A stretch of 62,696 bases of DNA, counting the filler, from Stramenopiles sp. TOSAG23-6 (taxonomy: Eukaryota), in the NCBI GenBank assembly GCA_900128565.1. It is 7 parts of 7 records of this genome, joined end to end, with 100 filler letters (N's around TTAATTAATTAA, not from the genome) between each part and the next. Parts side by side here need not be neighbours in the genome. Positions count along the whole stretch, not along the records: positions 47,863 to 59,688 come from LT636234.1; 6 more parts are not named here. The stretch is one strand, 5' to 3'. Each line of letters begins with the position of its first letter. Within the stretch, counting starts at the first letter, position 1. Made by a program: the position numbers and the translations under genes. This document shows, in pieces, positions 13,324 through 61,192 of the stretch. Under the pieces are notes generated by a model. The model did not search any database. It was not told the DNA's origin and saw only the letters and a list, made by a program, of their open reading frames with translations.

Positions 13324-13376
13324 TATATTTCAAGTTAATAACAAGGAAAACAATATAATTTATGTATAAAATTTTA

Positions 13377-26076: not shown

Positions 26077-28382
26077 TTATCGTTTTCTTTTGTTCCCTAT
26101 TATTGTATCATTTGAACGATTCATTACCTTTCGCATAGCATCCCAATCGCCTAATGTACCATCATGGGACTCTATAATTCGTGCATGCACATCAGGATAT
26201 ATTTTCTTCAAAAATTCACCAGCCATTTCACTTCTTTTTTTTTCTTTATTACGAGTTTGTTGAGATGTTTCACTGCCTCCTTTAGTGCCAAGCTTCTGAA
26301 CTATCCAAATTGGTCTTGGTTTTCTAACATGTCCACTACTTCCAACACACCCCAAATACATACAATTTGATAATCGCCACATCATAAATAAAACCATTTT
26401 TTCACATACTAAAACGCCTGCAGAAGGAATATCTGTAATATGTATCGCCATGTAACCGCCTTTATCCAACAAGCTCCATGCTCGTGATAACGAAACATAT
26501 AAAAAACCAACAAGCCAGTCATTAAACTGCTGAAATGTGTCCATAGATTGCCCCTTTAATGAAGTATATACTTCAAAATCAAAAAATGGAGGTGAAGTGA
26601 ATACGAGATCATACCTTTCTAATTGGCCTCTTCCTCCTTTTTTACTATTTTTATCCAATTTTCGTGGTAGAGCTGCTGTTTCAAAAGGCTCGTACACAAT
26701 AGTTGCATTTGTACGCATGTATTTTGAAAAACAATTTCAAAAAAAAAAACTAAAATTTGTTAGGTACAAAATTTCGTACGAAAAAAAATCAAAATTGAAA
26801 AAAAATAAAACCTACAGACTACGACCAGGTCGAGAAAGACGTTGAAAACGCTCGATGATTTTATCATGACCAGATTTAAGTTCAGAATTAGGATCACATG
26901 CTACATGTATTGTGAAAAAAAAAACATTTTAGTCAAACAAATTGTTAAGATACAAAATTTTCTACCAAAAAAAAAATTAAAATTTTTAAAAATGATGAAA
27001 ATGTACATATCTCTCAACACCTGCAGCAAGAGCACCGATGAGACGATCGCCCCAACCTGCACTTATATCTAATACACGAGTCGCCCTGAAGAGTTTCATA
27101 ACAGATGCTGCAAGACTTGCTTTAAATTGAGTACATATATTGTGAAAAATTATTTTACATTTAATTTTTTTGTTAGGTACAAATTTTTGGTACAAAATAT
27201 ATATATATATTACGTTCAATTTTGAAATCGGACATTCTCTTAGGCATTTCCACATGGCTTCCCGCATTGCAAATGGTGTTAAACCCTCAGGTCTTTCCAT
27301 TGTAGCTTCGATGAGTGACTTTTGAAATACTTTGTCTTCAGCATACATTTCTAAAGGACATAAAGTTTGTATTGTGAAAAAATATTTTTTTTTCGTGCAA
27401 AAAAATCGTTAGGTACAAAATTTCGTACGAAAAAAAAATGAAATTCATGATGAAAAGGTACTTGATCTTTACGCCTCGCTGACATTCTCTGAACTTCAGT
27501 GAAATAATCAGTCACAATGTCCATGTCCCAATACTCGCTATCTTTATGCATAAATAAAACAAAATTAAAATCATCTTTTTTTTGTGGATTACGCATTGCG
27601 ATCTGTAAAAAACCTCTAGGAGTTTTGAATTTCACATTAAAAGGTTTGAAGGTTTCATTAGAGACGTCGATGCTACACCTTTGTAAATTTCTGAATTTTT
27701 GGTCAATATCTGTAAGGTAATGCACTTTTAAGGGGAATGTGATATGACCCAATTGCATTAGTTGGCACATAGCNGTAACAATATAGCTTGCACCAAACTC
27801 TGTAACTAAAAGTTTTAACTTCGCCTTTGGTAAATGAATTTGGGAATTACTATCAATAAAATGATACATTAGAGCTCGGCATGATATTGCACCAATATCT
27901 CCTAGTAACTGTACAACACGATCATTTTTAATACTTCTTTCCTTGCATAAGATAGGAATCCATTCGCGGCGTAGTTGTCGCATTTTGCTACAAGCTTTAT
28001 TTGCTTCTTCAAGAAGAGCAGTGCGCAGATCTTTTGTTTTTTTACGTATTTTTTGCTCAACATCATCACACATACCAAGGAGTACACGTGTACGCTCTAC
28101 TCTACCTTCTGAACCTGACGGTGATTCAACTCTAAGATAATCAATTAACTTATCNCGCAATCCAACCAGCTTTANAAGATAAGTTTTTTTTCGCAGTAAG
28201 GTTTCATCACGTTGGCTCTGACATTTGTTCTCCCAACGAGAAACTAAGTCAAGGAGGAAGAGTAGAGGTTTTGAACCTGCCTCTCGACCTCGAACAACAT
28301 CAGCTGCTTCTTTCAATGCAGTTTCTTGACCACTGAGTAAAATATTAAGACGCTCATCTTCTGGGTCAAAAGTCTCATCCAT
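26077..28382 (-). CDS. SAM-dependent amino-(N6A/N4C) DNA methyltransferase-like protein, five exons
   Basis: ECTQFK, VLDISAGWGDRLIGA, Y|VACDPN and DLVFTSPPFFDFEVY reconstructed by removing four introner introns. Confidence 0.8.
26717..26815 (-). mobile_element. Introner intron, GT-AT (99 nt)
   Basis: ct|GTAGGTTTTATT...core...TCAAAATAC-AT|g. Confidence 0.8.
26905..27006 (-). mobile_element. Introner intron, GT-AT (102 nt)
   Basis: at|GTACATTTTCATC...CACAATAC-AT|; restores ERY|VACDPN. Confidence 0.85.
27135..27233 (-). mobile_element. Introner intron, GT-AT (99 nt, in frame)
   Basis: at|GTCCGA...CACAATAT-AT|gt; restores RECTQFK. Confidence 0.7.
27367..27461 (-). mobile_element. Introner intron, GT-AA (95 nt)
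   Basis: aa|GTACCTTTTCATCATG...CACAATAC-AA|; restores RKDQ|TLCPLEM. Confidence 0.85.
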
Positions 28383-31433: not shown

Positions 31434-34400
31434 TCATATCGAGTCTTCATAAATTTGNTCTAAAAGTTTTCTACCTGTAGATGCAGTTGACCTTAATCCA
31501 GATGTATTCGCCTCTTCTATTAATTCCTCTAGTGTAGCCGTATCTAATGTCTTCAATGCATTCCACATTCGTTTCCGCAACATTCCAACTCTTTCACTGT
31601 CTGAAGTATCCTTTTTACTTTCTTTAATAATGCCTTCAAAAACTCTTTGACTCTTTTCAAATTCTCTTGCTGCTTTCATTGCTTCTTTCCCCATTTCAAA
31701 CTTAGATCTAGGCCTTGGTTTAAGTGTTAATTTCACAATGCGGCTCTCAGGTCCATGATGTGAAGTCGATGCGANGTCTCCCATTTCTGACACTCCACTA
31801 CTTTGAGTGTTATGTTTTTCTTCTCTCCCACTTGGAACTACGGATTTTGATTGTCTTGAAGATATAACAGGGAATCTAGATTTAAGATCTGTAACTTCTG
31901 GGCTACGNACATAATCATATTCTGACTCNTTTCCTTCATTTTTTAATATATCGTTANCATCAACTTTTGTCTCTTCAGTTTTAATGTTTATGGAAAGATT
32001 CTCCAGTTCATTCACATGTTTTTTAAAGATTATATTCCACATAGGGTGTGCCATACCTTGGCGCAATGTTGCTATCAAAGACCCATCTTCGATGTCCCAG
32101 AGAGCGATTTTACAATCACTTGAACCAGTAAGTAATTTCGGCGGGTCTGCATTGTCTACAATAGTAGTGGATAATATAGCACTATCATGCGCCCGTTTCA
32201 CTTTCCAAGACACATCTGGTGCACACTGCTTTATTTGAGATATATCTATTTGAGATCTTTTCGGTGAACTTGGTGTAACCCGAGCATCCCANATAGACGG
32301 GGTGCTTCCTAACTTCTTCACTATAAGATCTTCCAAGGATTGTGCACGCAAGTCACCATATTCATCTCCAGTATATAAGGTCATATTTGGCGTGTGAAAT
32401 GCTGCAGAAACGGCTGTGCCGGGAATTCTNGCTTTAGATGACTGCTTAAATTGAAGAATTTTAGTGTGATTTAGACCACTTGAACGACATCCCCATATNT
32501 CGATATCGCCAGTCGACACTCCACAAGCAAAAAATGGGTAAGGTCCTAAAAATTGTATAAATGTCGTATGACCTCTGTATGCCTCGATCTTTTTAATACT
32601 ATTCACTTTGTGATGAAGCTTCGCCTCATTTGACTCATCTTTTCCATGTTTAATTACGCCCTCGAGTTTTCCATCTGTATAATTCCATAATCGAATGGTC
32701 GAATCAGCACTCCCTGTAGCAATAAGCGATAGTTCCTGAGAGTATGATGATGTAGTCAAATCATCAGTATGTCCTTGAAGTCTCTGTGGGTCTAAACATA
32801 ACAAAACTGCGTCATTCATTCCTTCATCAACATTATCATCATGAATGATTATTCTTCCCGACCAATCACAAGAAACAATGCACCCAGGTTCAGCAACAGG
32901 AGAATCACTGATTTTAGGACAATATAAAAGACTGGTTATCTCAGTTGGTTGTGGCATCAAACTTTTTACTTTTGAACCAGATCTAAGATTAACGGCAGAA
33001 ATGTTTCCATCATCGTCGCCTAAGAATACTACTCGTCCCTTATAATCCAAACAAGCTGCTGTAATTGTAGAGGGCATAATTGATCGGAACTCTTCTAAAA
33101 GTTTTCCATCTTTGGCAGACCATACTTTTACATTTTTTTCATGTGTAGAGACAATTATTTTTGTGTCAGGAGAAAAAAGAAGTGAAGAAACTGGCAAATC
33201 ATCTGAGAGGTTTCTTACTCCTGTACCTTGTGGCTTTTCCCTCTTGAACACTGACAAATACGTTTTAGATGTCGTCACGTACTGTAAAAAAATATTTCAA
33301 AAAAAAAATCGTTAGGTACAAAATTTCGTACGAAAAATAAATAAATTTAAAATGCATGATAAAAACGTACACTATCTGGGACGTCCGTTCTACTTTTCGA
33401 AATAAACCAGGACCATTTGTAACTTTGAATTCACGCGGGGGTATGTATGCAACTGCTGTTCCCTGTTTTATGTCTCCAGTAAAAGTTTGAAGGCAACGAA
33501 AAGTTCGAATATCCCATATTTTACAGATTCCGTCAGCATCAGTGGTCAAAACTTCATTGGAATCGTCACCTCCCATTCGAGTCACATTAACAAGTGACGC
33601 TGAATGTCCTTTGAGTGTAAATACCTCAGCTTCGCCAAACGGACTCCATACATATGCTTCGTGATCAAAACCAGCACTAACTAACAATTTTGAACTTGGT
33701 AAATAGGATAAAGATACGACACCAAATGTGTGTCCACGTAATATTTGTTTTCGAACTCCAGTAAAAACATGTAGTATGAAAAACTATTTTAGGAAAGAAA
33801 TCGTTAAGTACGGAATTTCGTACGAAAAAAAAATATTTGAAATTTATCATGAAAACGTACATCCCAGATACAAATATTTGTATCAAGTGAAGCCGACGCA
33901 ATTGTATCCAATGAACCCAGGTGGTGCAAATCCATGACCATATCGGCATGACCTTGCATTGCAGACGCTTTTTCACGACGATTTTGAATATCCCAAACAT
34001 GAACCAGTCCATTGACAGTACCCGAATACATTCGTTTGTGTGTATCTAACCAGCATAAACTCATATTAACACTGGGTGCAGGCCAACATAGTGGGGTGTT
34101 TCCATCATCACTTAATGCAACTTTATATTGCCGTTTTCCGCGGCTTAAACTCCACAGACCCATCGTAGCATCTCCAAATGAAAACATCATTCCGTTATAT
34201 TCTGGAACATATTCAGCAGCCATCGGAGCCCCTCGTCTTGCAAGGTCAATACTTGCTGATATTTGTGAGCTTTCGATATCATATATCCTAACAACTGATC
34301 CACGCTCTTCCATGATTGCTAATTGATCTGTTGGTTCCATATATACTGCATACTGTATATCTGAGGAGTGTCGATGTTTACGACAAGATTCACTTTGTCC

Positions 34401-35972: not shown

Positions 35973-37284
35973 TTATAACTTTGAACAAATTGAATAATTC
36001 TTTGGACTCTTTAAAGTATACATTTTCTTACAAATCGTATCAAATCGATTCCATTCCGACATTGTTGATAGTAACGCAGCAGTGAGTGCAAGTGGCTGAT
36101 CTAGCATTATATGATGTCCCGCGGCTTTTATCTCAATGATTTGACATGGACCAACATCTTAGGTATAAAATTTGGTACGAAAAAAAAAATGATGAAAACA
36201 TACATGAACCTTGGCGCTCACATTCTTGTTTCACATGTTCATAAGCTACATTTTCTTGATTAAAAAATATTGAATTCTCGCCAGTATATAAACAACATTT
36301 ACATCGCACACTTGAAAGAATATTAGACAATACTTGAATTTCAGCTTCATGGTCAACAGCAGTCCTCAATTCAGGCACTCCGCCAAATGTATTAACTATT
36401 GTATGCCATGTTGTTTTCGCAAAAATTTCAGGATCAAATTTCCACGAATATAATGTAGATTCACCCAAAGATGCATGATATTTTTGAATTTCACTATGAA
36501 TTCGATGTACATCAGCATCTTCTACCAATGGCTTTGAGTTTTTTGTGTATTTTGCGTTTGGTACGTGTACGTGTCCTTTATAACCAGACCAATCTGTATT
36601 TGAATCAGGAACAACTGATGCAGCATTCTCCGACCAAAGACGGACACCATGAAACGATACATGATTTAAAATAAATGAATTCAAACAGGATTGAGATGGT
36701 CTTAATTTAAAACGCTTTAAAAGTGTTTCAATTTTTTTAAACATTCGCGGTCGTCTCCCCAAAGCTTTCTTGTGCTTCAACCGAGAAATGGGAAGCCAAG
36801 CTCTTAACATTTCCTCTGATCTAACGGGTGTGTCAATGACAATGAGGCCACCTAAATAACTCGATCGTTTGATATCATGTGCCAGAAACATTGATACTAA
36901 TCCACCATAACTGTGTGCAACTATGACAGGTTTAATGACTGTGGGGAAGTTCGAGTCTTTTAAAACACTAAATACCTCTAAAGCGTGAACTTGAATAGAA
37001 TAAGACTGTCTCCAGCCAGAGTCACCATTCCCTGATAAATCTACAGCAACTACTTGATATTTCTCAAGCAGTAGTGGTGCTATAAAGCTCCACCAATGTG
37101 CATTTGCTTGTGACCCATGGACAAGTAAAATTCCAGGTTTTTTAGTATTACGGTCCCAGTGAAGGTAGTGAATATTACACGAACATTCGTTCCCATCAAT
37201 TAAAAACGGTACCTTTACACTTCTGTGCTCATATGGAGTATGTATCGCATTACTAAACCATTCACAATGCTCTGAGGTCGACAT
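35973..37284 (-). CDS. Alpha/beta hydrolase with C-terminal SKL (PTS1); exons 37284-36204 and 36145-35973
   Basis: LLVHG, AHSYGG nucleophile, AGHH catalytic His in exon 2, ends ICSKL*. Confidence 0.9.
36146..36203 (-). mobile_element. Short introner intron, GT-AT (58 nt)
   Basis: at|GTATGTTTTCATC...core...GGTCC-AT|gt. Confidence 0.8.
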
Positions 37285-41239: not shown

Positions 41240-43003
41240 ATGAGTTGTTGTATTGACCTCTGTTTCGGTTGTACTTGTGAAGGTTTAGCTTGTTGTGGTG
41301 CAGTATGCTGTACCTGTTTGTCATCAAGAAAGCAACACCGACGAGATGATGAAGCGCATACATTCTGTTCGCGATTCTGTATCTGGTGTCAGTTTGCCTT
41401 TTATTGCATCATGGCTGGTGTAACAATGGTTTTAATCTTTATTATTGGAATGGCGCCGGAGTCCCTCGGTTTAGGTACGGCAAAGACAGGTGAAAATAAT
41501 TGTATCCAACAGCCGGGATGTGACGTCATAGTTCTTTCTATGTGTAATCCAAATATCTATAATTGTCCTGTAGACGATGATGATAATCCAGACACAGAAA
41601 AACCATTCAATCCGTTTTTTGAAAAATCACTTTCAATACAAGGAGATGTAGTAAAAACTTGTCGAATATTTGAAAGATGTATGTTTTATTTTTTTTTTTA
41701 ACAAAAAAATCGATTTTTTTTTCGTACGCAATTTTGTACCTAACGAATTTTAAGTTTTTTTTTTTGAAATATTTTTCAAAAATACATACGGTTCACATTG
41801 GACAATTCCTGCTTCCTCAGATACATCAATGGAATCTACATTACGAAAAACAAAACCAGAGTTATTTCGAGATCGCACTTGCTCAGATGCATCTTCAGAA
41901 GCAGATTGTGATATTCTTATTGGATGTAATTGTACGTTTTATGATGATTTTTTTTTACCAATTTTTTTTTCATACGAAATTTTGTACCTAACAAAACATT
42001 TTTACAAAAAAAAATATTTTTTCAAAATACATGGAGTGGTTCCTGTGGGGGGATGATAACAAAATGTAATGATATCACAGATACAGGAAGCAATGCTGGA
42101 GTGACTGCGCTTATTGTTATATTACTTATAGTTTTCATCGTATTTGTAGGGGTTGCTTTTATGCGTCATCGTGTAATTTTTCAAAATTGATTTTTTTTTT
42201 ACCAATTTCAAATTCATTTTTTTTCCTTATCAATTCTGTAACTAACAAATTTCGAATGTAAAATATTTTCTTCAATCCATACACTTTATCTATATGATGA
42301 AAAGATGAAAAAACTTGCGGATGAGAAGAAGGACCATAATAAAGAAAAAGAAGAAGAAGAAGAAGAAGAGGAACCAAATTATTGCTTGGAATGTCCACCA
42401 TTATGGTGTGTAAGATGCATGCCTACTAAAGTACGTAGCTCTTGTTGTGATGGTTGTTGTGATTGTGATGATGAAGAAGATGGAAACGTTAAAGCGACTG
42501 CCAAAGTTAGCCCCTTATCGCCAGAGGAAACAAAAGGTCCGCCTGAAAGAGGTGCCCAAATGTCAGACCCAAGAATGGGTGAAGTTGGTACAAATAAAAT
42601 AAATCGACCTAATTTACAAATTTCTCCTGATTCTGGTCGTGGTGGTCTTGATGGACTAGGTGATGTTGGATTGATGCAATTATCGGGTGCAGTGCCTAGT
42701 TTTGCTACTAATGATATCAATCGTTCAAGTAGCATGGCAGATTTTCGACAAAAACAAATTGAACAAGAACAAAAAAATCAACTCTTACAAATGGAAATAA
42801 CTCAACTTCGAATGGAGCAATCTCTAAATAATAATGCAAATATTCAGAAATCAGCGAGTATGAACAATATAAATCAAATGGGTAGTCAAATGGGTATTCA
42901 GAGATCAGCAAGTTTGAATCCAAATATGAATTCAGGAATGTCAAATTTGAATAGCATGAATACAAATATTCAAAAATTTAATGCAAATATTCAGAACTTT
43001 TAA
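41240..43003 (+). CDS. Cys-rich two-TM membrane protein, four exons
   Basis: Continuous frame after removing introns 41679-41787, 41932-42032 and 42173-42280. Confidence 0.7.
41679..41787 (+). mobile_element. Introner intron, GT-AT (109 nt)
   Basis: at|GTATGTTTTATT...core...AAAAATAC-AT|ac. Confidence 0.85.
41932..42032 (+). mobile_element. Introner intron, GT-AT (101 nt)
   Basis: tt|GTACGTTTT...core...CAAAATAC-AT|gg. Confidence 0.85.
42173..42280 (+). mobile_element. Degenerate introner intron, GT-AT (108 nt)
   Basis: GTAATT...GTAACTAAC...TTCAATCC-AT|. Confidence 0.65.
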
Positions 43004-43065: not shown

Positions 43066-45172
43066 TCAAAATAAACTACGCAATGTTTTAGTCAGTTCAA
43101 CTAAAGCGAGCGTGTCTCTTTCACAATATTCTAATAAAGACTTTCGTACTTTTCGTCTTTCCTTACCTGTATATTCTTTGGTCATGATAAACTTTTCCAG
43201 CATCACTGCAGCTAATTGGCCTCCATGAACATCTAAATCCTCATAGGACATGTCGGGTATTAAAGCAGGCAGAACTTTTTTAAGACTAAAACTACCATGA
43301 AAATTTGGATGGTATACGTAGTTTCGTATCACAGGTAGTAAATCGACAAATTTGTCATTCATGCTTAATAATATATCAGCATCCTTTGGTGGAAGAAAAC
43401 GAGAAAGATCGTGAATGACACGCTTCTCAAATGATGCTGAGTATTCATTGTGAAAAATAGTACAAAAAAATGATTTTTTCCGTTAGGTACAGAATTTACA
43501 ATCAAAACAAAATCGAATTAAACAATACATTTGAAATGAATGATGAAAATATACATGCAACAAATGTTTTTACATTTTTCAATTTTTTTACCAAGGTAGC
43601 GGCTAACTTTGGACGAGGGTCATTGGCATCTTCTGATAGCCATTCAATATGTGATAATTCCCCATTACATGACAGATAATGAACCGATACCTGCACAGCT
43701 ACTTGACCGTATGGTCTTACATGAGGCCAGATAGGTATAACACTATTGATTGCTTCAAAATCAATGTATTTTGGAAAAATATTTCAAAAACAAATCGTCA
43801 GGTACAAAATTTTTATAAAAAAAAAATTCGAATTTGAAAATAAAATAAAATAAAATAAAACATTCATGAAAGCTACTGGAGGTATAATCTTACTCAATTC
43901 TTTTTCAAGTCCAGGTTGAATGACTAATTTATTTTCTTTATGTGATTCAACTTGTCTCTTTTGAATAGCTGATAAAGATATATCAGAAGGTATATCCTCA
44001 ATTTTATCAATTTCGCGAAAACGCAAAATTTTCATCAATTTTTCATTTTTTCTGTATAATTCATCAATATTTCCAATTCCTGTTTGATTACACCGATTGT
44101 AAAAAGGACAAAGATATGGTTTTTTACAATGTTTCCCCGGAGTCACTTTGGGTCTCCTCTCTGTTTTTGTTATACTGTCTCATGAAAAAAAAAAATCAAA
44201 TTTTTTTGTTAGGTATAAAATTTCGTATTAAAAAAAAAAAAAGTCAATTTTGAAAACGTACACATCTCGTAAATGTTTTGCTATGTAAGGAATATCGGAA
44301 ACCAAGTCACGTGCCTCCAAAGTTACATTATTACGTTTAAAAAGTGATTGTTTGCTATTGTGACTTTTATTGTTGTTGTTGTTGTTGTTGTCTGACGATG
44401 ATGGTTGATCTTTTGTAAAATTAGAATAAGATGGAGTGGGCTGGTTCATTTGTAACCGATTTTTTAATTCTTTCACTAAAATATTTTTTTTTCTATTTGC
44501 TTTAATTCCAAAACTTTTACAATACTTTTGAAGATCGCGATAACTTAATGTATCTATAGACGCACAATCTAATTTAAGATGTGAGGAAGAGTTGATTTTA
44601 ATATCCGAAAATACACTTGTATTTGAAATTTCGTAATCCTTATTTAACGTCAAAACATCCACCTGATCAACTGTAACTCCTTGAGACTCTAGGACATATA
44701 TTTGAACGGCTACATCAAATATATGTTGTTTCTTAACCGAATTTGTCGACTTGACTTCTATAATATTCCAAGCACAATCATTATCTGTATTGCGTTCAAG
44801 AACATCTACCGCAACAAAAATACCGTCGTGAGTAAACGAAGCTTCATAAATTAAGGACGATTCACTTTCCATGGCACGTTTCGTAGCCTCAACCATGAGA
44901 CTTTTATTTGATTCATATTGAATAAGAACACCATTTGGAAATGATTCCATTGCTGCTTTGCCTACCCTGTGTCCATTGTCAAAAACAGCCTGTAACTCGG
45001 GCGATATTTCAAGTTCTGGTGCATCAGGTTCATGAATAGTATTCCAAAGCAACAATGGACACTGATGACCTGAAAGTATTCTAGACTTTGATAAACCCCC
45101 TATAGAAGACGCATATCGATGTCGTGCTAAATTAAATAAAGAAATGCGGATATACTTACTCAACATGTGCAT
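43066..45172 (-). CDS. DUF2779-family protein: PD-(D/E)xK nuclease, SAP-like insert and RNase H-like domain; four exons
   Basis: LSKSR..G.QCP, VDVL...IIEVKS, DFE, SFEK, GSFSLKKVLPAL, LLEYCERDT. Confidence 0.85.
43443..43554 (-). mobile_element. Introner intron, GT-AT (112 nt)
   Basis: Restores FVAYSASFEK. Confidence 0.8.
43764..43865 (-). mobile_element. Introner intron, GA-AT (102 nt)
   Basis: at|GAATGTTTTATT...TCCAAAATAC-AT|t; restores AFIDFE. Confidence 0.8.
44175..44261 (-). mobile_element. Introner intron, GT-AG (87 nt)
   Basis: GTACGTTTTC...ATACCTAAC...CATGAGAC-AG|. Confidence 0.85.
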
Positions 45173-45574: not shown

Positions 45575-47709
45575 ATGACAGACAAAATTTCAGAAGCAGA
45601 TTCACTAAAATCTGAATCTTATTTTGTATCTTCTGACGAAGAACTAGACAATATATGCGGTGATTCTCACAATTCCTTGCTCAAACGGTCACATTCCCCA
45701 ACATTATCTATATCAACAGGATATTCTATAGAAGAGAAGGAACCATCCGATTTAGCTAGTTTTGCTCTTTTACCAGAACCTTTAGAGTCTGGTAGAAGTG
45801 TAGAAGCTTTAGAGTTACTCCGCCATGCCCAAGATTTTTCGTACATAGGTGCTTATGCTCAGGCTGAGTCTTGCTTACGGTCAGTTTCTCACAATAATCC
45901 TAAAGATGGTTTTGTCATGACTCGATATGTGACTTTGCTACAGCGACAAGTTTTTAATGATGCTAGTGAAAGTTCTAGCAAAATGGAGCTACAAAAACTC
46001 ATAATAGAATATCTAGACAAGCTTATTGTAAATATCACACTTCGTGTAGAAGGCCTCAGTGAAATTGAAGCATATCAGCACAAAGCCGAACTGGCTTGGG
46101 CTCTCCTATTACGAGGTTTTATTTCTTGGTGGCAACGAGATTTTAATCGTGCAAAGGAACTTTTCAATGCAGCGTCTACAGCTGATGATAAATATGCACC
46201 AGCGGAGACCGCTCAAGCTTTGCTACTTAAAATGGAAGGCAATTTAGTAGATTCAGAGAGACGTTATCGACTTGCACTTTCACTTGATGGTGAATATACT
46301 TTAGCGCGTCAAGGGTTAGGGTTGTTGCTTCAACGGACTAAACGATTTGGAGAAGCTGAGAGACAATATGAGAGAATACTTGAGTCTGACCCAGAGTTTC
46401 AACCTGCACGAAAACAATTAAAGATTTTGCGTGCACCAAAACCAAAACCCAGTCAAAAAGGATGGCAAGATGATGTAGTTTTGAAGCCTGTGTGGGATAA
46501 TGAGATTGAAACAGATTCCTCTTCCCATAGAGGTATGTTTTTAGAACCCTAAACCCTAATGAATTTTGTGTCTACATTTTTTTTCATCCGAAATTATTTT
46601 TTCATATGCAATTTTGTACCTAACGAGTTTTTTTTTTTTTTTTTTCACAATGCATGTGATTGGGGAGTAGATAAATCAAAAGCCTTTAGTACCCCAGAGA
46701 AACACATAGCTGGCGCAGGTTTCCAGGCAGGTTTGCGAATGGTCGGGCGACGAGTGAATAAGAAAGGTGATCGAATTTACATGACTTCAAAACCTGTAAC
46801 TCTGGGTGGTGATGGAAATATAGGTGAATTTGTTGCATTTGTTCCAGATAAAGTTACAGCAAACATGTTTGAAGTGAACAAATGGAGTCTCGAATTAGTC
46901 CGGCGTATCTTAGTTCCAGCAAGAAAGAAATATATGGCTCTTCGGTTTCTTGCCAAATCTATGGAAAATAAAGTCTTACGATGTGGTGATGTACTATCTT
47001 CGTTTAAAAATACATCTATAGGTTTACAGAGTGCGGAAAAGTTAATTTCATCACCCGCCGATGTATCATCTACAAGACATAAAAAAGAGCAGCTGAACAA
47101 ATGGATGCGTGCAGCAGCTAGTGCAAGTTGCCTTGTTGCTGATACTGAATCCGTCCTCGACGAAGCAAATAAAAGACTTACAATACAATATAATGCAAGG
47201 CAAGCAAAAGATACTAAAATCCGTGAATCTCTTTGGAGTAGAATTAAACTGGCACAAGCTGATATACTTTTCTGTCATGAGACTCTAAGAATGCACGAAA
47301 TGAACCAAGAAGTAAAAATGATGATGAAAACATTAATTGATAAGACTGATATTCATATGGAAAGAGCTATCCAATGGCTCGAAACCCCTTCAAATTTTCA
47401 TGAAAAAGAAGAAATGAATGAAACCCAAGAAAGCTGTCGTTTGGCTGTTGACCGAGCTGTAGAAGAAGTAAAAACAATGAGCTCTAGTTTCAAGGGTAAT
47501 ATGAAACCTGTTCTTGAATTAGAAGATAGAACAAATCGAAATAAGAAGAGCCTTGAAGATTCTCGCATTACATTAAAAACATCAGGCGATATAATCAAAT
47601 TGATGAGAAAGCAATTATTTGAAGTAAATGTAATGTTGCAAAAAATACCAAAGCTTGTTGATTCTTTGGAGTTATGTCACAGATTTTGGAATGAAGCAAT
47701 GGAATACAT
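45575..47709 (+). CDS. TPR-repeat plus coiled-coil protein, 3'-partial
   Basis: TPR motifs; exons 45575-46532 and 46656-47709. Confidence 0.75.
46533..46655 (+). mobile_element. Introner intron, GT-AT (123 nt)
   Basis: GTATGTTTT...TTTTGTACCTAAC...CACAATGC-AT|gt. Confidence 0.8.
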
Positions 47710-47762: not shown

Positions 47763-47862
47763 NNNNNNNNNNNNNNNNNNNNNNNNNNNNNNNNNNNNNN
47801 NNNNNNTTAATTAATTAANNNNNNNNNNNNNNNNNNNNNNNNNNNNNNNNNNNNNNNNNNNN

Positions 47863-48611
47863 CGTCCCATTTGTTGTTGATATTGTGTCTCACTAGTTGC
47901 CTTCTTTGCTTTGTTTGCTTGAGCAGTTAAAGGATTATTTGCAAGAAGAAGTTTTGTTTTTTCAAGGAATGGATTATCTTCATTTTGTGAACTTCTTTCT
48001 TTATCAGAGTCATGCATTTTTCCTTTTGGAAACTCTCCTATTATTGCCAAGAACTCAGCATACCATATAGTTTTAGTTTTATTTGGATCTAAATAGTTTA
48101 CTATTTGGTTAATACGTTTATCTTGGATTAAAAGTCTCTGCAAAATATTTTTAAATGTTTCAATGGTAACTTTACCATTCTGAAGGTGATCTTGTGCAAC
48201 AAATTGTTTCTCGAAAACATCTCTTAATGTTCGAAAACTTTTCCCCCAGTCTCTCAGCTCTGCACGAAGTGTTTGATATTGATTTACAACACGAAAGACA
48301 CTTTTTTTATTATCCTTCTTTTTCTTAACTACATTCAGTACTTGAAAACCTCGATTACGTAGCTTGTTTTTAATTTCGCTTTCACCAGTTGTTTTTGTAG
48401 CATACTTTGCTGCCGCTTTTATGTCTTCATATTCTGGAGTATTTTCATTTAGATCGAAAGTCTTTTGCCGAAGTTCCCTAGATTTTGGAGAAACTGGAAC
48501 AGAATCATCCGAAATGATTCCAACATTGCTTTTAACATTTATCCTTTGTATTGAACCTTTCCTGGTCTGTTTTGATGGCATCTTATTTCTAGATTCTGTA
48601 TCAAGATTCAA
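47863..48611 (-). CDS. EF-hand-like protein, 3'-partial
   Basis: DHLQNGKVTIETF and LDPNKTKTIWYAEF; start uncertain. Confidence 0.65.
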
Positions 48612-48824
48612 GAAGTCTTACACTTGATTGTTTTGACTACTTAAGTAAATAAAATCAACTGTAAAAAAGTAACTGTCAAAAATACTGAAAATTCGAATTT
48701 GACATTTTTTATGAGACTGTCACATTTCGGTCGATTGGCTTTCAATTCAACATAAAAACAAAAAAATCCAACGTGTAATTTTTTTTTCCACTGTTCATCA
48801 AAAGACTTTGTGTGATATTTTCTC

Positions 48825-51800
48825 ATGAAGGTGGGAGATACTATAGTTGCTCTATACGACTATATCCCAGATGAGAATGATGGTTTAAGTCTTGAGGAAG
48901 GTTTAGAACTAGTTGTTATTGAAATAGACGGTGACTGGACGTGTGCACGACTCTGTTCAGGTGCTACTAGTGGTTGGATACCGACAAACTATGTTGAAAA
49001 GGTAAAAAAGAAAAAGAAAAAGGAAGTTCCCTCTCTTCCGAATAGTAGTCGGCGTGTATCGCCTTTACAGCACGAGCATTATATGATTACGAAGCCGAAG
49101 ATGAAGGTGAAATGACGATCAGGCTCGGGGACTTGATCTCTGTTATTGAAGACTCAGATTCTGACTGGTGGGTTGGTACGTTACGGGGCAAAACAGGATC
49201 ATTTCCGCGTACATATGTTGAAGTGGTGTCCAATACTTCACGGGACGATACAACTGAATCAGTATCATATGATGCTGAGATCAGAGCTGAAAAAGAAAAT
49301 AAACGAGAAGAAAAGGAACGTCAACAACGTGAAAAAGAACGCACTGAGCGAGAGCAGCGTGAAAAAGAGCAGCGTATAAAACGAAGGAAGGAACGTGAAG
49401 AAGCTGAACGTAAGAGAAAGATGGAAGCAAGTGCGAAAAAATCAAATATAAAATCTAAAAAAAATGGCATAAAGAAAGCAAAGAAAAATAATAACAGTGC
49501 ATTAATGGCTGCTATTGCAGGTAAAAAGAAAAGTGGACCACCCTCTGGTGATAGAAGTGCATTAATGGCTGCTATTGCAGGTAAAAAGAATAAGAAATCG
49601 AGCAAACGACAATGCGAAGAAGAATCAGGTCATCAATTATTTACAAAAAGTAAAGAAAAACTAAATCGTAAAAAAAAAGATCGATTGCGTCGTCGGAAAG
49701 CTGTGGAATCTGTACGTTTTCATCATGAATTTTAAATTAGTATGTAATTTTTGTAGAAAGTTTTGTACCTAACTATTTTTTTTAAACCAAAAAAAAAAGA
49801 TATTTTTCACAATATTCGTACGCCTTATTGCGGATGTTCACGGAGTGGATGATATGGTTTTATTGCCTAAACTATCTGACAAATCAATCGTAGGAAATTT
49901 ATCTCAGCGTCACAAGAATGATATCATTTACACTTATATTGGAAATGTTTTAATTTCGTTAAATCCTTTTAAATGGATAAAAATGTATGACGAATTTCAT
50001 ATCAATAAGTACAAAGGTAAACAACCTGTCGATGTGCCACCTCACGTATATGCTGTTGCAGAGTCAGCGTATAGGGAAATGAATGAAGAGGAAGAAAGTA
50101 TGTTTTATTTTTTTTCAATTTCGATTTTTTTTTCGTACGAAATTTTGTACCTTGTACCTAACAAATTTTACAAAAAAAATATTTTTTCACAATACAAGCC
50201 AATGTGTTATAATCAGTGGAGAGTCTGGAGCTGGTAAAACCGAAGCTGCTAAGCAAATCATGAGATATATAGCTGCTGTCAGTGCTGGTGGTCATTCAGA
50301 AGCTGTAGCTCGTGTTAAAGATGTCATTATGGAAAGTAATGCAGTATTAGAGGCATTTGGTAATGCAATGACTTTGAGAAATAATGTACGTTTTCATTTC
50401 AATTTCGAATATTTTTTTTCATACGAAATTTTGTACCTGACAAGTTTTTTTAGATTTTTTGAAATATTTTTTCATAATCCATAATTCTTCTCGGTTTGGT
50501 AAATATTTGGAAATACAATTTGATCTTCAAGGAACACCAAGAGGGGGAAAAATTACAACATATTTACTTGAAAAATCTCGAATTGTCCGTCCAAGTGAAG
50601 GGGAAAGATCTTTTCATGTACGTTTTATTTTTTTTTCAATTTCGATTTTTTTTTTTATAAAAATTTATATTTTATATGATGCTTTTTGGTATGCCAGAAT
50701 CACTTCGATCAAAATTAGAACTCGGTTCTCCTAATGAATTCGCGTACTTAAGACAAAGTGGAACATATACCATTGATAATGCTGGTGGTAAAATTAACGA
50801 TAAAACAGAATATCAAGATATGACAAGAGCTATGGATAAGATGGGAATCACGAAAAATGATCGTCTAGAAGTATTTAAATTATTAGCAGGAATTTTACAT
50901 CTAGGTAATGTAACTTTCAAACCCAAAAGAATTGGATCTGCTGATGGTTCGTGTGTTGGTGATACACGTGCACTCGAAATTACCGCGGATCTTTTAGGTG
51001 TAGATTCTCAGTGCTTGGAATTTGCGTTGACATTTAGAATGATGCATACCGGTGGGGAAACATTTGAAGTACATTTTCATCACTTGATTTTTTAAAATTA
51101 TTTTTTTTTTTTGGTATGAAATTCCATACCTAACGAATTTTACAAAAAAAACTATTGTTGCATAATACATGTCCCAGAAAATCCAACAAAAGCAAATGCT
51201 GCAAGAGACGCACTTGCAAAAGCTATTTATTCAAAAATCTTTGATTTTCTTGTAAAAAAAATCAATTTATCATTGAAATTAAAAGATGAATTTGATGAAT
51301 TTGATAATGAGGACGATGAAGATGATTTACTTACGATTGGAGTTTTGGATATTTATGGTTTTGAAATATTTGAGACTAACTTTTTTGAACAGTTTTGTAT
51401 TAATTATGTCAATGAAAAATTACAACAGATTTTCATTGAGCTTACGTTAAAAGCTGAACAGGAAGAATATTCAAGAGAAGGAATTACTTGGACAGAAATC
51501 CCATTTTTTAATAACAAAATTGTTTGTCAACTGATTGAAGCTCGAAAGCCTCCAGGAATCTTTACAATATTAGATGACACCTGCAAAACCATTCACGCAG
51601 AATCACGGGGAGTTGACATTAAGTTTTTGGATAAATTGAAGAGCTTTCAATCAAAACATAAACACTTTACCGGGATGAAACACAAATTTGTTGTGAAACA
51701 TTATGCTGGAGATGTGGAGTATGTATGTTTTATTTTTTTTTTAAACAAAAAAATCGAATTGTTTTTTCGTACGAAGTTTTGTACCTAACAAATGTTTTTA

Positions 51801-54800
51801 GATTTTTTTGAAATATTTTTCCAAAATACAGACGGTGGATGGATTTTGTGTAGCTAATAAAGATTCTTTGGTAAGTGATATTGCTGATGTCTTGGCAACA
51901 AGTGAAAACATTCTTATCAAAGATTTTTTTTCTGATAATTGTCTAAAAAATGNAAAAAAAAAGAAAACATCTGGTGAGAAGATTAAAAATCAATCGAAAG
52001 CTTTAGTGAAAAAACTTATGGCTGCTAGTCCTCATTATATCAGATGTCTTAAACCAAATGATAAAAAAAGAGCTGATTTTATTAATCCAAATAGGATTTC
52101 TCATCAGTGTAAATATTTAGGTCTTTTAGAAAATATCAAAGTTCGCCGCGCAGGGTTTGCATATCGAGCAGAATTTCATCGTTTTGCAGAAAGATTTCGA
52201 CTTTTATCTTGTAAAACTTGGCCGAAGCGCTTCGTTGGTACTGAAAAAGAAGCATGTAGAGCAATCATAAATGATGCAAGTAGAATTATACCGGAATTAA
52301 ATGGCCCCGAGGCTCAACTAGGAAAATACAAAGTCTTTATTAAACGTCCAAAAACGTTTTTTAAACTGGAAAAACAACTTCAATTACGGCGCAGTGGTTT
52401 TGCTCTACAAATTCAAAATCTTTGGAGAAGATATTTAGCTCGTCGGGATCTTGTGGAATTACGTCTTTCAATAGGTCAATTATATACGAATAATAATAAA
52501 AGTCGAGCAAGGGGAAGTATTTATCGTCCCTATGATGGAAATTATTTACAACGATTGCCTGAAGCTGTACGTATTGCAGTAAATGACATTATCAGCTATC
52601 ATGATGACACAGAATTTATTGTTTTTGGTGATGTGATTAAAAAGCTTCAATGTGGTATTGGTGATGATCGAGATGGTATCATTGTTTCGAGAATCTTTGT
52701 TATTACGAATAAAGCAATATATATTATGGAACAAATGCAACGATGTCGTCAACTAATAGTCGGAAATGAAGGTCATATGACCTTACCTTCAAAACCAAAG
52801 AAATCAAACATGTTTTCTAGTTTATTAGGCAAATCTACAAAAACTATCGAAGAACTTGAAGCGAGTCAAGAAATTAGTGCCAAAAAATTCAAACATGTAC
52901 ATCTTCGCCGTCGTACTAAATTAATCAACATTACTAGTGTCACTGTATCAACCCTCAGTGATGATTTATTAATGATTTCAGTCAAAGAGGATAATGTTTC
53001 ACCAGTTCCAGATAAAAGTCACTGGTTACCAGACTCCCAATGTGATGCTTGCATGCAAACAGGTAAAGTATTTGGTAAGATATTTAATCGAAGACATCAT
53101 TGTAGATTGACAGGAAATCAGTATTCGGATAGTGTCTGTAATGCTTTAGTATTATTGCCAGACTTAGGATGGTATACTCCACAGCGAGTTCACGATGGTG
53201 CTATTGGTTTTGCTAGTACTGAGATGCGTGAAGATACTGTTCTTCTCTCTCAAAGAAAAACTGAAATTGCAGCTATTTTACATGAACGTTGTGCCAAGGA
53301 TAAACTAATGAAACGTTTTATTTACTTTTCGAATCAAATACGCCCAAAACAAGCTCCAATGAAAGAGTTATCGTGTACCGTTGCTGGGACAATTAATATT
53401 CAAAAATTTCGAAGTTCTAGTAGTAATTTGACCGATGCGAAACCTATTGGGTTTGAGGATTGGACTGTCTCTTCCCCAGCTGGTGTTTTACAAGATGTTG
53501 TAAAAGCTCGTTTAGAAAGAGATGAAGTACGGAAAGTCCGCCGTCAGAGAGAACGCGAAGACGAACGCCGAATTCGTATGTTTTCATGATGAATTCCATT
53601 TTGTTTTTGGTATGAAATTCCGTACCCTAACGATTTTTTTTATACAATATTTTTCACAATGCATGTAAAGATCGCCAAGAAGCTAGAGCCGCGGAGCGTG
53701 CTGAACAACGCGCTCAGCGTATTGCAGCAAAGCGTGCACGAAAAGCAGAATTACGAAAAAATGGTAAAAAAACTAAATGTGACCGGAAAGTGAATGATAA
53801 GTCTGTTATGTCATCAAAAAAAAAACGAGACGTTCCAACTTGGATGAAGAAAAAAACTACAACAAAGGTAGCAACAGTTCCAAATTCAAAACTAAAATTG
53901 AAAACAAGTAATATTATAGAAACAAAAAAAGTACAATCAAAAGTCTCTCGTCCACCTCCTCCAGCATTACTCTCCAACACAACTAAAAAGAAAACAAGTA
54001 TTCGTCCACCTCCTCCAGCATTACTCTCCAATACAACTAAAAAGAAAACAAGTATTCGTCCACCTCCTCCAGCATTACTCTCCAACACAACTAAAAAGAA
54101 AACAAGTATTCGTCCACCTCCTCCAGCATTACTCTCCAATACAACTAAAAAGAAAACAAGTATTACAAGTATTCGTCCACCTCCTCCAGCATTACTCTCC
54201 AACACAACTAAAAAAAAAACAAGTATTCGTCCACCTCCTCCAGCATTACTCTCCAACACAACTAAAAAAAAACAAGTATTCGTCCACTTTTACCAAAGGT
54301 TCCAAAAAGAGATAATAAATCAAAAAGTCAACCAGCGTGGATGGATCAACGACAGAACCAATTATCAGTTGTCACTGAAAAACAAAAGTTTACCAAGGCC
54401 AAAAAACGTTTATCCAAAGAAATTCCAATAAAAGATTCAACAAACATGGATACACCAAAACGTTTACCCATGCGACCTGTGCCAAAACTAAAAAAACTGA
54501 AGAAGAATAAAAAGGAAGTAGTGAAAGACAATAAAGAAGTTAAATCAAAAAAGACTCGAAATGATGGAAAAGAAAATAAAGAAGATAAAAAATCTATAGA
54601 AAGTCTAAAGAAAGCACAACAGGTAGCTGTAGATGCAAGAGATTTTCGTAAGGCAGCAGACTTGGGAGATAAGATAAAAGTATTAGAAGAAGAGCAAAAA
54701 AATGCAGAAAATAATCGAAACAATCAGAAGAAAATAGAAGAACTCGAAATTCGTTTGGAAAAGGCTGTGAAAAATCGAAATTATCACCTGGCTGGCGATC

Positions 54801-57718: not shown

Positions 57719-57841
57719 ACTGTTGATTTTTAGGCAAATTTCCTAAAGGCCCTACAAAAACACTGATAGTTCGGCAACGGTGATAATAAATAAAAAATGT
57801 ATCCACGCTTACTCATAAACTATATTTATTTTCTATATTAA

Positions 57842-59633
57842 TCAAGTTATAACATCCAATGTTTCAAGTAGTGCGATATGAATAAGCGCATATGTCGCTT
57901 CTCTTTGTTGTGGACAGTTGGAAGAGGCATGAATATCTTTCTGGCCACTATATGATTTGATGAAAGCGAGACATAAAGTATCCCTCATCGCACAATTGAG
58001 AAGCTGCTTGGATGTATTGTTCATATTGTTTTTATTACATTCACAGCAACCATCTGGAATAGGATTTTGGACTGCTCCACTGTTAACAGATGATCCAGCT
58101 AGTGTTAATAGCATACCAGAGTATTCCTCTTTAATAAGTTCTTTAAAATCAAACCAATTGTCAGGTGCTTCAAATTCTTCAGGTTTTCTATTCATGACAA
58201 ATGACTCTTCTGTGTATGCCATATCAAAATCAAGAGGTCCTAAGAATGATCTAGGCGTTTCTGTGTATAATTCGGGTGGTAAAACAACAAAATTGTTTGC
58301 ATGTGCATTGCAATGAAATGGTCCAATTGCATCGCAAAAAGTTCCCCAACTGATTTTTTCCTCATGAAGTTTCTTAAGAAATTCACCACATTCCCAACCA
58401 AGCCTCCAATATAACTCACCAAGAAGACTTATTTTATCATGATTCGTATTTAAATCTGTCATATAAGATTGAATATATTGTTGTAGTATAAAGCGCTGCG
58501 TCTTATAGACCTCATGAATATTGGAAAAATATTTAAAAAAAAAAATTCGTTAGGTACAAAATTGCGTACGAAAAACAAAATTCGACTTTGAAAAAAAATA
58601 AAACACACATGAATATTGGAATCCTCAAGAAGAGAGAAAGAAAAAGGGTTCCAGTCATTTGGTGTTTTTAACTTGAATAGCAAAGTCGCATCCAATAGAG
58701 TTTCTTCATTGGCCATCCCCATCTCTGCAAGCATTGCAGTTGAAGTAAATTCAATCCTCTTAGTGTCACTACCAACAACAGATACCCTGTCACCAAAATC
58801 AAGTGAAGGAAATTTACTAGATAATAGTAAAGTAGTTGTTGACATTTTGGCAATATTATTATCATGACGACAATCTTTGACTGGTGAGGATGGTACCAAA
58901 ATTTCATACGAAAGAATTTTCTCAAGACCAGCAAGAAGGTGTGATCCAAGTCTGCGATTTCCAAATGTTTGCATTAATGAACAACACCGTTTCACTTTAG
59001 GTATAGGATGGAGAGGTGGTACATCATATTCGTACCAGCCAATAGGTTTATTTGCACAAAACATGTTTGATTGAAAAAGTAAATCATTGATCTTTGATGT
59101 CATAAATAGTTCACGGAGAGCTGTATGCTCGTGACTTGATCCACGAATTTGTCTGCAGGTTTTTCCAATCATTTTATTAAATTCTGAACGAATTATGAAG
59201 CCTTTCCCATTTGTCATTCCACAACCCTTTAAACGAAACCATTTATATTTATTTGTATTCGAGACATTCATTTGTATAATTGCGGATCGTTGACCACTTA
59301 CGTAGGCTGATATAGTACCATCATTCGTTTTTATTAAAGGATTCAATAGAGCTGCTGGAATATATTGAGAGCTACTCTTTATTTCAGAGTGTTCAGTTTC
59401 TTTTTCTTCAAAGGTTTCATTCATTGTAGTTATTTCATTTTCTTTTTCTTCAAAGGTTTCATTCATTGTAGTTATTTGATTTTCGACAATTATATCTGTA
59501 GCAGGAACCGCCGGAACCATTACATTACTATATTCTTCTCCCAATGAGGACATCGGCTGAAGTCGGCGAAGACTTGTACTGATATTATCCTCATTCTTTG
59601 TTGATTGTCGAAGGTTATTTTTCACATAACTAT
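57842..59633 (-). CDS. Kinase-like-fold hypothetical protein, 5'-partial; exons 59633-58609 and 58513-57842
   Basis: RLKGCG, ALREL, HCNAHANNF and PLDFD resemble kinase-superfamily motifs. Confidence 0.6.
58514..58608 (-). mobile_element. Introner intron, GT-AT (95 nt)
   Basis: at|GTGTGTTTTATT...core...TTCCAATATTC-AT|. Confidence 0.82.
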
Positions 59634-59882: not shown

Positions 59883-61192
59883 ATATGAGCTCGCTTCAAG
59901 TCATGTAAACTTTTTACGTATTTTTTACTACGCGTACGTGGAGTTGATTGAAACATAATTTTGATTTCTCTACCTAATTTTTGTGTGTTTGAATTTTTGT
60001 TTTTTGTACTTAATTTTTGTGTGTTTGAATTTTGTAACTGTAAACACTCTTTCAACTCAATCGCACAAATTTTATTCTCATATAAAGTTACCTGGTACTG
60101 TGCATGTATATTTTTGAAATATGCAATACATGTATTTACTTTTGTTAGATAAAAAAGTGAACTACAAACAAAATAGTTACACAATATATAAATGTTCTAT
60201 AAAAAAAATATTTAAAAAAAAAAAAATCGAAATTGAAAAAAAAAAAATTGAAATGAGTAATACAATAATAATGGTAAAATACATGACGGATATTTTCATC
60301 AAGGATAGGCAAATGATTACTCTTGGTATTTTTTATCAAATGACTCATGTTATTATACTGTTTATCTATAGAATGATTTTCGGACATTTTCTCTAGTGTC
60401 TCGATTTCTTGCAGTGCAACTAATTTTGCTATTTCTTGTTGTCGTCTATTTAATGTGAACGATATATATATATATATATTTGTTAGGTACAAAATTTCGT
60501 ATAAAAAAAAAAATAAAAAAAAATAAAAATAAAAAAAATAACTTATCTTTCTCAATTTTTGTAACTCTTTTTTCTGTAACGCTGACAAACATCTCTTCAT
60601 TGGATTAGGGTTAGGGTTCTTCATTGGGTTTGGGCTACTTTGTGTACTATCCTGTAGACCATGTATTTTGGAAAAATATTTCAAAAAAAAATTTTAAAAT
60701 TTGTTAGGTACGAAATTTCGTACGAAAAAAAAAATCGAATTTGAAAAAAAATAAAACATACATGTATATCATTCTGTTCTTTGTGTTGATTCATTTCATC
60801 AGAATTATCTTTTGTATTGGAATGATAAATACTTGACTCAATTGTTCCATGATGTTTGCTAATCGAATGCACTCCTGTAACATTACTTTCTTTAGTGTTA
60901 TGTTCAATATTATGTAAAGCTTTGTTGATTTTATGAACTTCTGCCTCAACGGCATGTTCAATATTATGTTCAATATTATGTATTTCATTCATAGCTTTAT
61001 GAGCTTCTGCTGCAACAGCATGTTCAATATTTTGTAAGTCATTCTTAAGTTTATGAGCTTCTGCTCCAACGGCATGTTTAATATTATGTTCAATATTATT
61101 TAACTCATTATTGATTTTATGTGCTTCTGCTCCAACAGCATGTTCAATATTATGTTCAGTATTATGTATTTCATTCTTAAGTTTATGAGCTT
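59883..61192 (-). CDS. Internal fragment of a hypothetical protein with (HNIE/HAV.AEAHK) repeats
   Basis: Frames joined across introns 60761-60661, 60546-60448 and 60282-60104. Confidence 0.55.
60104..60282 (-). mobile_element. Degenerate introner intron, GT-AT (179 nt)
   Basis: at|GTATTTT...ATCTAAC...AAAATATAC-AT|. Confidence 0.6.
60448..60546 (-). mobile_element. Introner intron, possibly AT-AT (99 nt, in frame; boundaries uncertain)
   Basis: ATAAGTTATTTT...ATACGAAATTTTGTACCTAAC...CACATTAA-AT. Confidence 0.55.
60661..60761 (-). mobile_element. Introner intron, GT-AT (101 nt), near-consensus copy
   Basis: at|GTATGTTTTATT...TTCGTACGAAATTTCGTACCTAAC...TTCCAAAATAC-AT|. Confidence 0.88.

Follow-up and report, generated by a model that had tools for sequence, protein, structure and literature searches.

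Results

A stramenopile myosin gene interrupted by copies of one intron element

We analysed a 62,696-nucleotide (nt) stretch of DNA from Stramenopiles sp. TOSAG23-6 (GenBank assembly GCA_900128565.1), hereafter the window, in which seven contigs are joined end to end and of which positions 47,863 to 59,688 (LT636234.1) carry, on the plus strand, a gene for a class-I-like myosin with SH3 and FYVE parts. The genes of the window are eukaryotic and further include those for a WD40 protein, ATG9, COQ7, SRP19, a CENP-C-like protein, a TPR protein, a kinase and others; in protein searches, their nearest named homologues were from stramenopiles. The introns of the myosin gene, designated i0 to i6, and the parts of i1, the copy described most closely here, are as follows.

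49712..49817, plus strand: myosin intron i0, GT..TC, end motif AATAT; the junction residue fits homologues P0003 and P0004 only in the GT register
50098..50197, plus strand: myosin intron i1, 100 nt, GT..AA with AA also before the GT; starts GTATGTTTT and ends ..CACAATAC+AA
50098..50106, plus strand: 5′ splice-site block of i1, GTATGTTTT, identified by family conservation and motif enrichment
50134..50151, plus strand: central imperfect palindrome of i1, hairpin-capable, just 5′ of the branch-like motif
50158..50162, plus strand: CTAAC of i1, a motif resembling a branch point, with its A at 50161, 36 nt from the 3′ end; putative branch role
50182..50195, plus strand: terminal block of i1, TTTTTTCACAATAC, the most conserved 3′ part of the family
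50196..50197, plus strand: last two bases of i1, AA, the same as the two exon bases before the GT; apparent target-site duplication
50386..50482, plus strand: myosin intron i2, GT..AT, in the switch-I coding region
50618..50666, plus strand: myosin intron i3, 49 nt, a truncated copy with only the 5′ half of the element, ending ..TT
51069..51170, plus strand: myosin intron i4, GT..AT, placed by frame and homology
51723..51831, plus strand: myosin intron i5, GT..AG with the AG at the position given by the rule described below; an AG at −30 is skipped
53576..53664, plus strand: myosin intron i6, GT..AT; an AG 6 nt beyond its end would also keep the frame

Intron i1 is one copy of a repeat family of ~90–125 nt per copy. 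Its consensus runs, in this order, through GTAYGTTTT, a variable A/T-rich part, an imperfect palindrome (CGTACGAAATTTTGTACC), CTRAC immediately after the palindrome, an A/T-rich stretch that is rich in T, TTTTTCAnAATAC and two further bases. The motif GTAYGTTTT occurs 22 times in the window against 2.4 occurrences expected, a count reached in none of 100 shuffles, and nhmmer with a profile built from 12 copies returned 38 hits at E ≤ 0.01 on the two strands of the 62.7 kb. As is characteristic of introners, copies were found in unrelated genes (those for the myosin, the WD40 protein, the TPR protein and others), and all 18 full-length copies lie in the sense orientation of their host genes. 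Those outside the myosin gene, referred to below, as are the myosin introns, by the position of their first base on the strand of the gene, are listed here together with the deviant copies.

33277..33370, minus strand: WD40 intron, GT..GT, its donor also preceded by GT; skips a TACAG 5 nt upstream
33769..33860, minus strand: WD40 intron, GT..AT; skips an in-frame AG at −15
26717..26815, minus strand: family intron, GT..AT
26905..27006, minus strand: family intron, GT..AT
27367..27461, minus strand: family intron, GT..AA with AA before the donor
41679..41787, plus strand: family intron, GT..AT
41932..42032, plus strand: family intron, GT..AT; chain translation open
43443..43554, minus strand: family intron, GT..AT, end motif AATGA
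43764..43865, minus strand: family intron with 5′ end GAATGT (GT changed to GA), in frame by the rule, AT before the donor and AT as its last two bases
44175..44261, minus strand: family intron, GT..AG at the rule position
46533..46655, plus strand: family intron, GT..AT, carrying additional sequence inserted near its 5′ end
58514..58608, minus strand: family intron, GTGTGT..AT
60661..60761, minus strand: family intron, GT..AT, the best match to the family profile
20823..20914, minus strand: degenerate family intron, GT..GT, with a twin at 8924 in a duplicated contig
36146..36203, minus strand: internally deleted copy of 58 nt, GT..AT, in frame by the rule

Pairwise identity among the copies has a median of 0.60 and a maximum of 0.88, and their ends are near-invariant, a pattern that suggests a family of old and diverged copies. 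Positions G1, T2 and T6–T9 are identical in 19/19 aligned copies; in the terminal block the C and the next A are each kept in 17 of the 19 and the last T in 14, and the first exon base after the element is G in 13/19. CTRAC or TTAAC, for which a branch-point role is putative, lies 32–45 nt from the 3′ end, with a T-rich block before the end.

Very many (thousands) distinct contigs of an independent seawater DNA run carry the element. When its contigs were aligned to the 11.8-kb contig of the myosin gene, 5501 matched, and summed depth was ~4,300–10,100 in the bins that hold copies against 5–10 elsewhere, a figure that is not a copy number. A scan of metagenomes yielded one locus, on contig L001, with one further copy of the same architecture. 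The single match in a scan of a genome collection fell in a bacterial metagenome-assembled genome and covered only profile positions 41–76; it was judged a chance match. Rfam models gave nothing in the window at their gathering scores and nothing inside the introns at E ≤ 1.

On DNA-run contigs of other loci, the element end is joined directly to AT and a new element start (joints of 50195/50196 to 50616/51720/51721; 3–9 contigs each), which suggests that element copies insert next to one another. Two partial copies, tandem or nested, occupy 34962–35116 on the minus strand, and the insert near the 5′ end of intron 46533–46655 contains, at 46550–46570, two telomere-like CCCTAAA units.

The 3′ junction lies two bases past the terminal C

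A single rule was applied to all copies, namely removal from the G of the GT through the second base past the terminal C. Frame was assessed by comparing the longest open reading frame ending at the GT with the longest one starting 2 nt after the terminal C, a pairing in which 1 in 3 would be in phase by chance. The rule joined the flanking frames in 18/18 full-length copies (17 by script, and copy 41932, which follows a 144-nt exon, by a chain translation open through both junctions). It was also in frame for copy 43865 in spite of its GAATGT 5′ end, for the degenerate copy 20914 and for the internally deleted 58-nt copy 36203, and it was obeyed by a diverged copy near 42178–42280, as judged by eye, and by the copy on metagenome contig L001. 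Copy 35502/35500 is compatible with either an AG at −5 or the rule combined with a second GT, and the composite or tandem copy 35116 gave no clear outcome. A 3′ junction at a fixed position, 2 nt past the C of an AATAC-like motif, is thus supported in every testable copy by frame and sequence comparison.

The dinucleotide left at the 3′ end by this rule varied. Among the 18 copies it was AT in 12, AA in two, AG in two, GT in one and TC in one, so that 16/18 have a non-AG boundary. The two terminal AGs (51723 and 44261) both fall at the rule position. The family departs from canonical U2-type introns at its 3′ end, while at the 5′ end GT with the extended U2-type consensus was present in 19/19 aligned copies, one further copy having GAATGT. 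The branch-like A lies at 32–45 nt from the 3′ end, a variable distance, and branch-site distance alone therefore does not fix the 3′ site. AGs between the branch-like motif and the end are skipped in copies 33370 (−5), 33860 (−15), 49712 (−18), 50386 (−29) and 51723 (−30), the junctions of which are pinned by homologues.

Single-base assembly errors that hide AGs had been named beforehand as the finding that would overturn a non-AG junction. They were rejected as the cause: 12 copies, and that on L001 as well, have AT at this one position, and in three runs the consensus of loose ends is ..ACAT ahead of the element and, past position 50196, T G.

A first-pass annotation of this DNA had let intron i1 run to 50200, which is 3 nt too far, the actual end being 50197. 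Its description of individual junctions was borne out. With the GT at 50098 as donor, an AG one base downstream of the end of i1 gives a frameshift and a TAA four codons on, ahead of the P-loop codons; in WD40 intron 33370–33277, the TACAG 5 nt upstream of the required end yields GTT ACG TGA; and sliding both ends of intron 51723–51831 by 2 nt upstream creates GAG TAG. Taken alone, i1 may also be read with both cuts 1 nt downstream as a TA..AG intron giving an identical mRNA; because the first base of exon 2 is also G, this intron by itself proves only that at least one of its ends is non-canonical.

Homologues fit the spliced products without gaps

Removal of the introns by the rule gave a myosin that aligned gap-free with P0003 and P0004 at 7/7 junctions. 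At four of these, namely i1, which bears on the spacing to the P-loop, i2, which interrupts the switch-I motif, i3 and i5, the fit was gap-free against 6/6 homologues. Used as a query, the exon between i1 and i2 retrieved P0003 and P0004 at 87% identity over the exon, as well as distant myosins including one derived from a transcript. At i2, no AG keeps the switch-I motif in frame. At i0, only a cut at the GT yields the residue that P0003 and P0004 conserve; the register 2 nt upstream gives a different one. The stramenopile WD40 orthologues P0129, P0132 and P0134 were likewise gap-free across both junctions of that gene, and the use of TACAG with a second GT at 33370 would add three residues absent from all orthologues compared.

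P0054, a database gene model of this same myosin locus (about 49.8–53.6 kb), has GT-AG introns only. It takes a second GT and the AG at +1 for i1, which places one extra residue before the P-loop, and a second GT with an internal AG for i2, which puts 11 unrelated residues within switch I. At i3 the model runs on through the intron and out of frame, and at i4 conserved residues are missing from it. The model is thus wrong in at least four places, because only GT-AG introns were allowed.

A two-base flanking repeat and short pairable ends

In 13/22 copies, the exon dinucleotide preceding the GT is the same as the dinucleotide that ends the intron; when 3′ dinucleotides were shuffled among the copies, the figure was 8.8 (p about 0.01). 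AT is the commonest dinucleotide on both sides of the element, and three matches (AA, AA and GT) are of other dinucleotides (p about 0.014; small sample). A target-site duplication with a preference for AT would give this 2-nt repeat; a duplication specific to each locus is a mark of introners. The last two bases of the intron would then be the second copy of the duplicated target and would therefore vary. Among mismatched copies in the window, AT is the intronic dinucleotide in five and the exonic one in one, which hints at some constraint on the intronic AT.

The only candidate terminal inverted repeat is GTA(Y)/(A)TAC, of 3–4 base pairs (bp), which in some copies can be lengthened to about 8 if a mismatch is allowed. 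Bases 1 to 4 of the intron are predicted to be able to pair with the four bases ending at the terminal C, so that the final two bases overhang, and this GUA(Y)/(A)UAC helix closes the minimum-energy fold in 8/10 copies. RNAalifold found no consensus pairs in the family alignment. A hand-drawn model of the terminal helix plus the central hairpin had 80% of its cells paired, with shuffles doing equally well, and the central palindrome had 84% of cells paired with covariation not beyond that of shuffles. With folds and pairing counts at shuffle level and no consensus pair from RNAalifold, the 3′ site may be set either by a factor that reads the end motif or by pairing of the ends. The first-pass annotation had proposed that the 3′ site is set by position, through the AATAC motif or 5′/3′ end pairing, instead of by scanning to an AG; the positional part stands, given the fixed +2 position and the AGs skipped in five homologue-pinned introns, while the choice between motif and pairing gained nothing from folds no better than shuffles and from the lack of covariation. 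That the introns form a repeat family, and that 2-nt direct repeats occur at its flanks, go beyond that account.

Sequence context and assembly of the window

The window is AT-rich (GC ~0.27–0.39 per 2 kb) with many single N bases, and parts of its sequence are present in seawater metagenomes and metatranscriptomes. Its contigs are linked by N44-TTAATTAATTAA-N44 at 11902–12001, 23892–23991, 35828–35927, 47763–47862, 59689–59788 and 61193–61292. At least five contig ends lie inside an intron element, three of these in the central palindrome, which indicates that the repeat breaks the assembly. Contigs 1–11901 and 12002–23891 are near-duplicates with an offset of 12001, base-identical to about 7030 and out of register thereafter, and look like two versions of one locus set next to each other.

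The start of the myosin gene, at about 49040–49080, has a frameshift between two SH3 domains; an independent contig of the DNA run has 10 extra bases at 49062–49064, which would restore the myosin frame. In the myosin tail, at about 53.9–54.3 kb on the plus strand, translation shows a proline-rich unit of ~19 residues in several repeats. The window also holds one intron from outside the family, which has only its 5′ site in common with it, so that conventional introns coexist with the element.

14241..14375, minus strand: conventional kinase-gene intron outside the family, 135 nt, GTATGT..TAG, with its junction exactly inside the conserved catalytic-loop motif

Discussion

Proposed origin and removal of the introns

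The analysis demonstrates a repeat family with a 3′ boundary at a fixed position, in-frame joins, a gap-free fit to homologues and 2-nt repeats specific to each locus. Judging from these sequence features, we consider it probable that the copies are spliceosomal-type introns derived from a high-copy introner family resembling miniature inverted-repeat transposable elements (MITEs), with a 3′ site set by position. Each copy would bring its own signals in the form of a GTAYGT+TTT 5′ site, a palindrome beside CTRAC, a T-rich tract and a terminal block ending in ..AATAC, and its insertion would duplicate 2 bp of target, most often AT. The pre-mRNA would be cut at the G of GTAYGT and then after the second base past the terminal C, the excised piece being the element plus one copy of the duplication. 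Removal of exactly these parts would restore the original frame whatever the duplicated bases, and it would leave a 3′ dinucleotide that is mostly AT and sometimes AG, with neighbouring AGs unused. The agent would presumably be a spliceosome with a relaxed second-step requirement, acting at the RNA level and measuring the 3′ site from the terminal motif, which may be kept close to the 5′ end through a short GUA(Y)/(A)UAC helix, with the two terminal bases left unpaired. Conservation of the 5′ site, CTRAC and the T-rich tract far above the rest of the element, together with the sense orientation of all copies, argues for spliceosomal removal from RNA.

More tentatively, and with somewhat less than even confidence, the second cut may be placed by a ruler, at a fixed 2-nt spacer after a terminal motif that is held to the 5′ site by the inverted ends. 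If so, these introns would form a spliceosomal-type class in which the first step is canonical and the second takes no account of the terminal dinucleotide. Such a class would stand between ordinary introners and the counted code of Euglena, and the transposon would be freed from the need for an AG or GT in its target.

Several observations weigh against splicing by position. To our knowledge, a non-AG 3′ end combined with G at intron position 1 is not known in standard spliceosomes. No junction of these genes was among the 15 listed of 222 joints, and the RNA contigs listed from three metatranscriptomes did not cover the myosin motor exons, a result that bears on splicing neither way. Compared with longer proteins, the exon between i1 and i2 matched no transcript product of the same species, only relatives (at no more than 87% identity) and the existing gene model, and the next long exon matched nothing at E ≤ 1e-20 among proteins of similar length. 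An in-frame AG lies 3–12 nt downstream and is compatible by frame in five copies (58608, 43554, 53576, 60761 and 46533), and the register is ambiguous in the 10/18 copies with the same dinucleotide on both flanks. The folds do not exceed those of shuffles in stability (z −1.9 to +0.35), the terminal pairing is of 3–4 bp only and shows no covariation beyond shuffles, and the family was studied on about 25 copies only. Finally, the 49-nt i3 has no second palindrome arm, CTRAC or end motif, yet homologues require its removal; it stops mid-palindrome, where conserved coding sequence adjoins directly. An assembly collapse at i3 is possible, because the same contig has the frameshift near 49062.

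Alternative explanations

Among the alternatives, an unlikely one that survives best is that the same elements are cut 2 nt further upstream at both ends, giving NN-GT...AC introns, commonly AT...AC, spliced by the minor or a tolerant major spliceosome. AT-AC ends function in both spliceosomes, and the commonest copies resemble U12-type AT-AC introns when read in this way. Both registers predict the same mRNA wherever AT precedes the GT (8/18 copies, plus 43865, 36203 and L001), the terminal C is kept in 17/19 aligned copies, and 43865, which lacks the GT (GAATGT), still reads AT...AC. Against this, the upstream register gives 5′ ends of AA, CT, TT, AG, TC or GT in 10/18 copies, the AT not being conserved across copies, and it makes a TAG at 51723 and alters a residue conserved in P0003 and P0004 at i0. 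Minor-type introns have an RTATCCTT-like 5′ motif and a branch motif within about 10–20 nt of the 3′ end. Neither feature was found, the 5′ motif being present in 0/19 copies (positions +4 to +6 are Y, G/A and T in 19/19) and the branch-like motif lying 32–45 nt off, and assignment to the U12 type was rejected.

We regard as rather improbable that a non-spliceosomal machinery recognises the paired intron ends, as has been proposed for the nonconventional introns of euglenids. Variable 3′ borders, short direct repeats at the junctions, pairable ends and a splice position at a fixed spacer do resemble the Euglena code (PMC12501133, PMC11282704). According to PMC11282704, however, euglenid nonconventional introns are without a spliceosome-type 5′ site, CTRAC or T-rich tract, all of which every copy here keeps. 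The CAG/CTG pairing at +4..+6 and −8..−6 is also absent from the family; with Y-G/A-T at +4..+6 and a T-rich tract, its members were not classed as euglenid nonconventional introns.

Ordinary GT-AG splicing throughout, from the first or a second GT to any in-frame AG, would have to leave proteins with small indels, and we hold it to be very improbable. In-frame GT-AG combinations do exist at i1, i2 and i4, as P0054 illustrates; a second GT puts the nearest out-of-frame AG in frame at 27006, 27461, 41932, 50098, 51069, 33370 and 50386; and a conventional GT..TAG intron is present in the window. AG offsets were in frame with the second GT in 10/14 cases, an apparent excess that is not significant. 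The products, in contrast, would carry 11 unrelated residues in the myosin switch I and one extra before the P-loop, lose a residue at i4 and gain three in a WD40 repeat, with gaps against every close homologue; i0 would need a 6-residue insertion, and i3 cannot be managed at all. The combination of a second GT with a nearby AG was rejected on these homologue gaps.

It is equally hard to credit that no RNA splicing takes place and that the genes are transposon-disrupted pseudogenes, draft-assembly artefacts or products of DNA excision like the eliminated sequences of ciliates, since the fragmentary assembly with its many N bases, the frameshift near 49062 resolved by an independent contig with 10 extra bases, the abundance of element sequence in contigs of RNA runs and the TA dinucleotides near the element bounds, all of which could be cited in its favour, stand against 18/18 copies in sense and in frame under one rule, splice-signal-like blocks far more conserved than the remainder of the element, the same architecture on an independent contig, and hand translations in which TA-to-TA excision leaves 2 surplus residues at the site of i1 and 3 at that of i2, within switch I, and so does not restore the gene at either intron relative to homologues.

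Implications

Spliceosomal-type introns with a positional 3′ site would provide a natural set for the study of 3′ splice-site choice, in which textbook 5′ and branch-like signals are combined with mostly AT ends and usable-looking AGs are skipped. They would also represent a new route from introners to introns, whereby the element supplies all but the last two bases and these come from a 2-bp duplication. Gene predictors limited to GT-AG introns mis-model such genes, and protein catalogues of the lineage as well as annotation-based introner surveys are likely to be affected, as the existing myosin model, with junk in its catalytic motifs, suggests.

Comparison with known systems

We found no description of such introns in the literature searched, which included marine stramenopile genomics papers and PMC9903769, supplements lying outside the search.

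Introners with one splice site of their own and the other taken from a duplication are known with canonical sites (PMC11282704, PMC9860276). Like the present family, those of Micromonas and Aureococcus are short, high-copy, non-autonomous elements in sense orientation within genes, each with one splice site of its own; as is proposed for the present family, the other boundary falls in or beside the duplication, and splicing takes the element plus one duplication copy. In Micromonas and Aureococcus, an AG or GT of canonical type is co-opted and the duplications measure 3–9 bp, whereas here they are of 2 bp, usually AT, with a non-AG end in 16/18 copies. The MITE-derived introns of Fritillaria borealis are similar in their direct repeats and in 3′ ends of A+N (AC, AT), and have inverted repeats, as the present family may; an adapted major spliceosome has been proposed to remove them (PMC11282704). 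They begin with AG (AG-AC, AG-AT), whereas the introns studied here have a strong GTAYGT and deviate at the 3′ end only.

The introners of Amoebophrya, likewise from a marine protist, are repeated introns with non-canonical borders, direct repeats over the junctions and inverted repeats able to bring the ends together (PMC7789003). As described there, the direct repeats are of 3–5 nt and the inverted repeats of 8–20 nt, no dinucleotide dominates and no U1 was detected. In the present family, the repeat measures 2 nt and the terminal pairing about 4 nt, and the 5′ GT is invariant.

Introns of euglenids and hemistasiid diplonemids are comparable in that the splice position lies at a set distance from an internal motif that is conserved or paired (PMC12501133, PMC4770533, PMC12621601), and a purine is preferred there as the first exon base, which here is G in 13/19 copies. 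The present family differs from them in having no CAG/CTG pairing and in having a T-rich tract, a branch-like motif and a canonical 5′ GT. In the Euglena code, both cuts are counted from a paired internal motif (PMC12501133), which would make it the closest analogue of the fixed 2-nt spacer. The family described here differs from each of the systems compared in uniting a 5′ site that is canonical and invariant, internal signals of spliceosome type, a 3′ end that seems to be counted and an apparent duplication of 2 bp.

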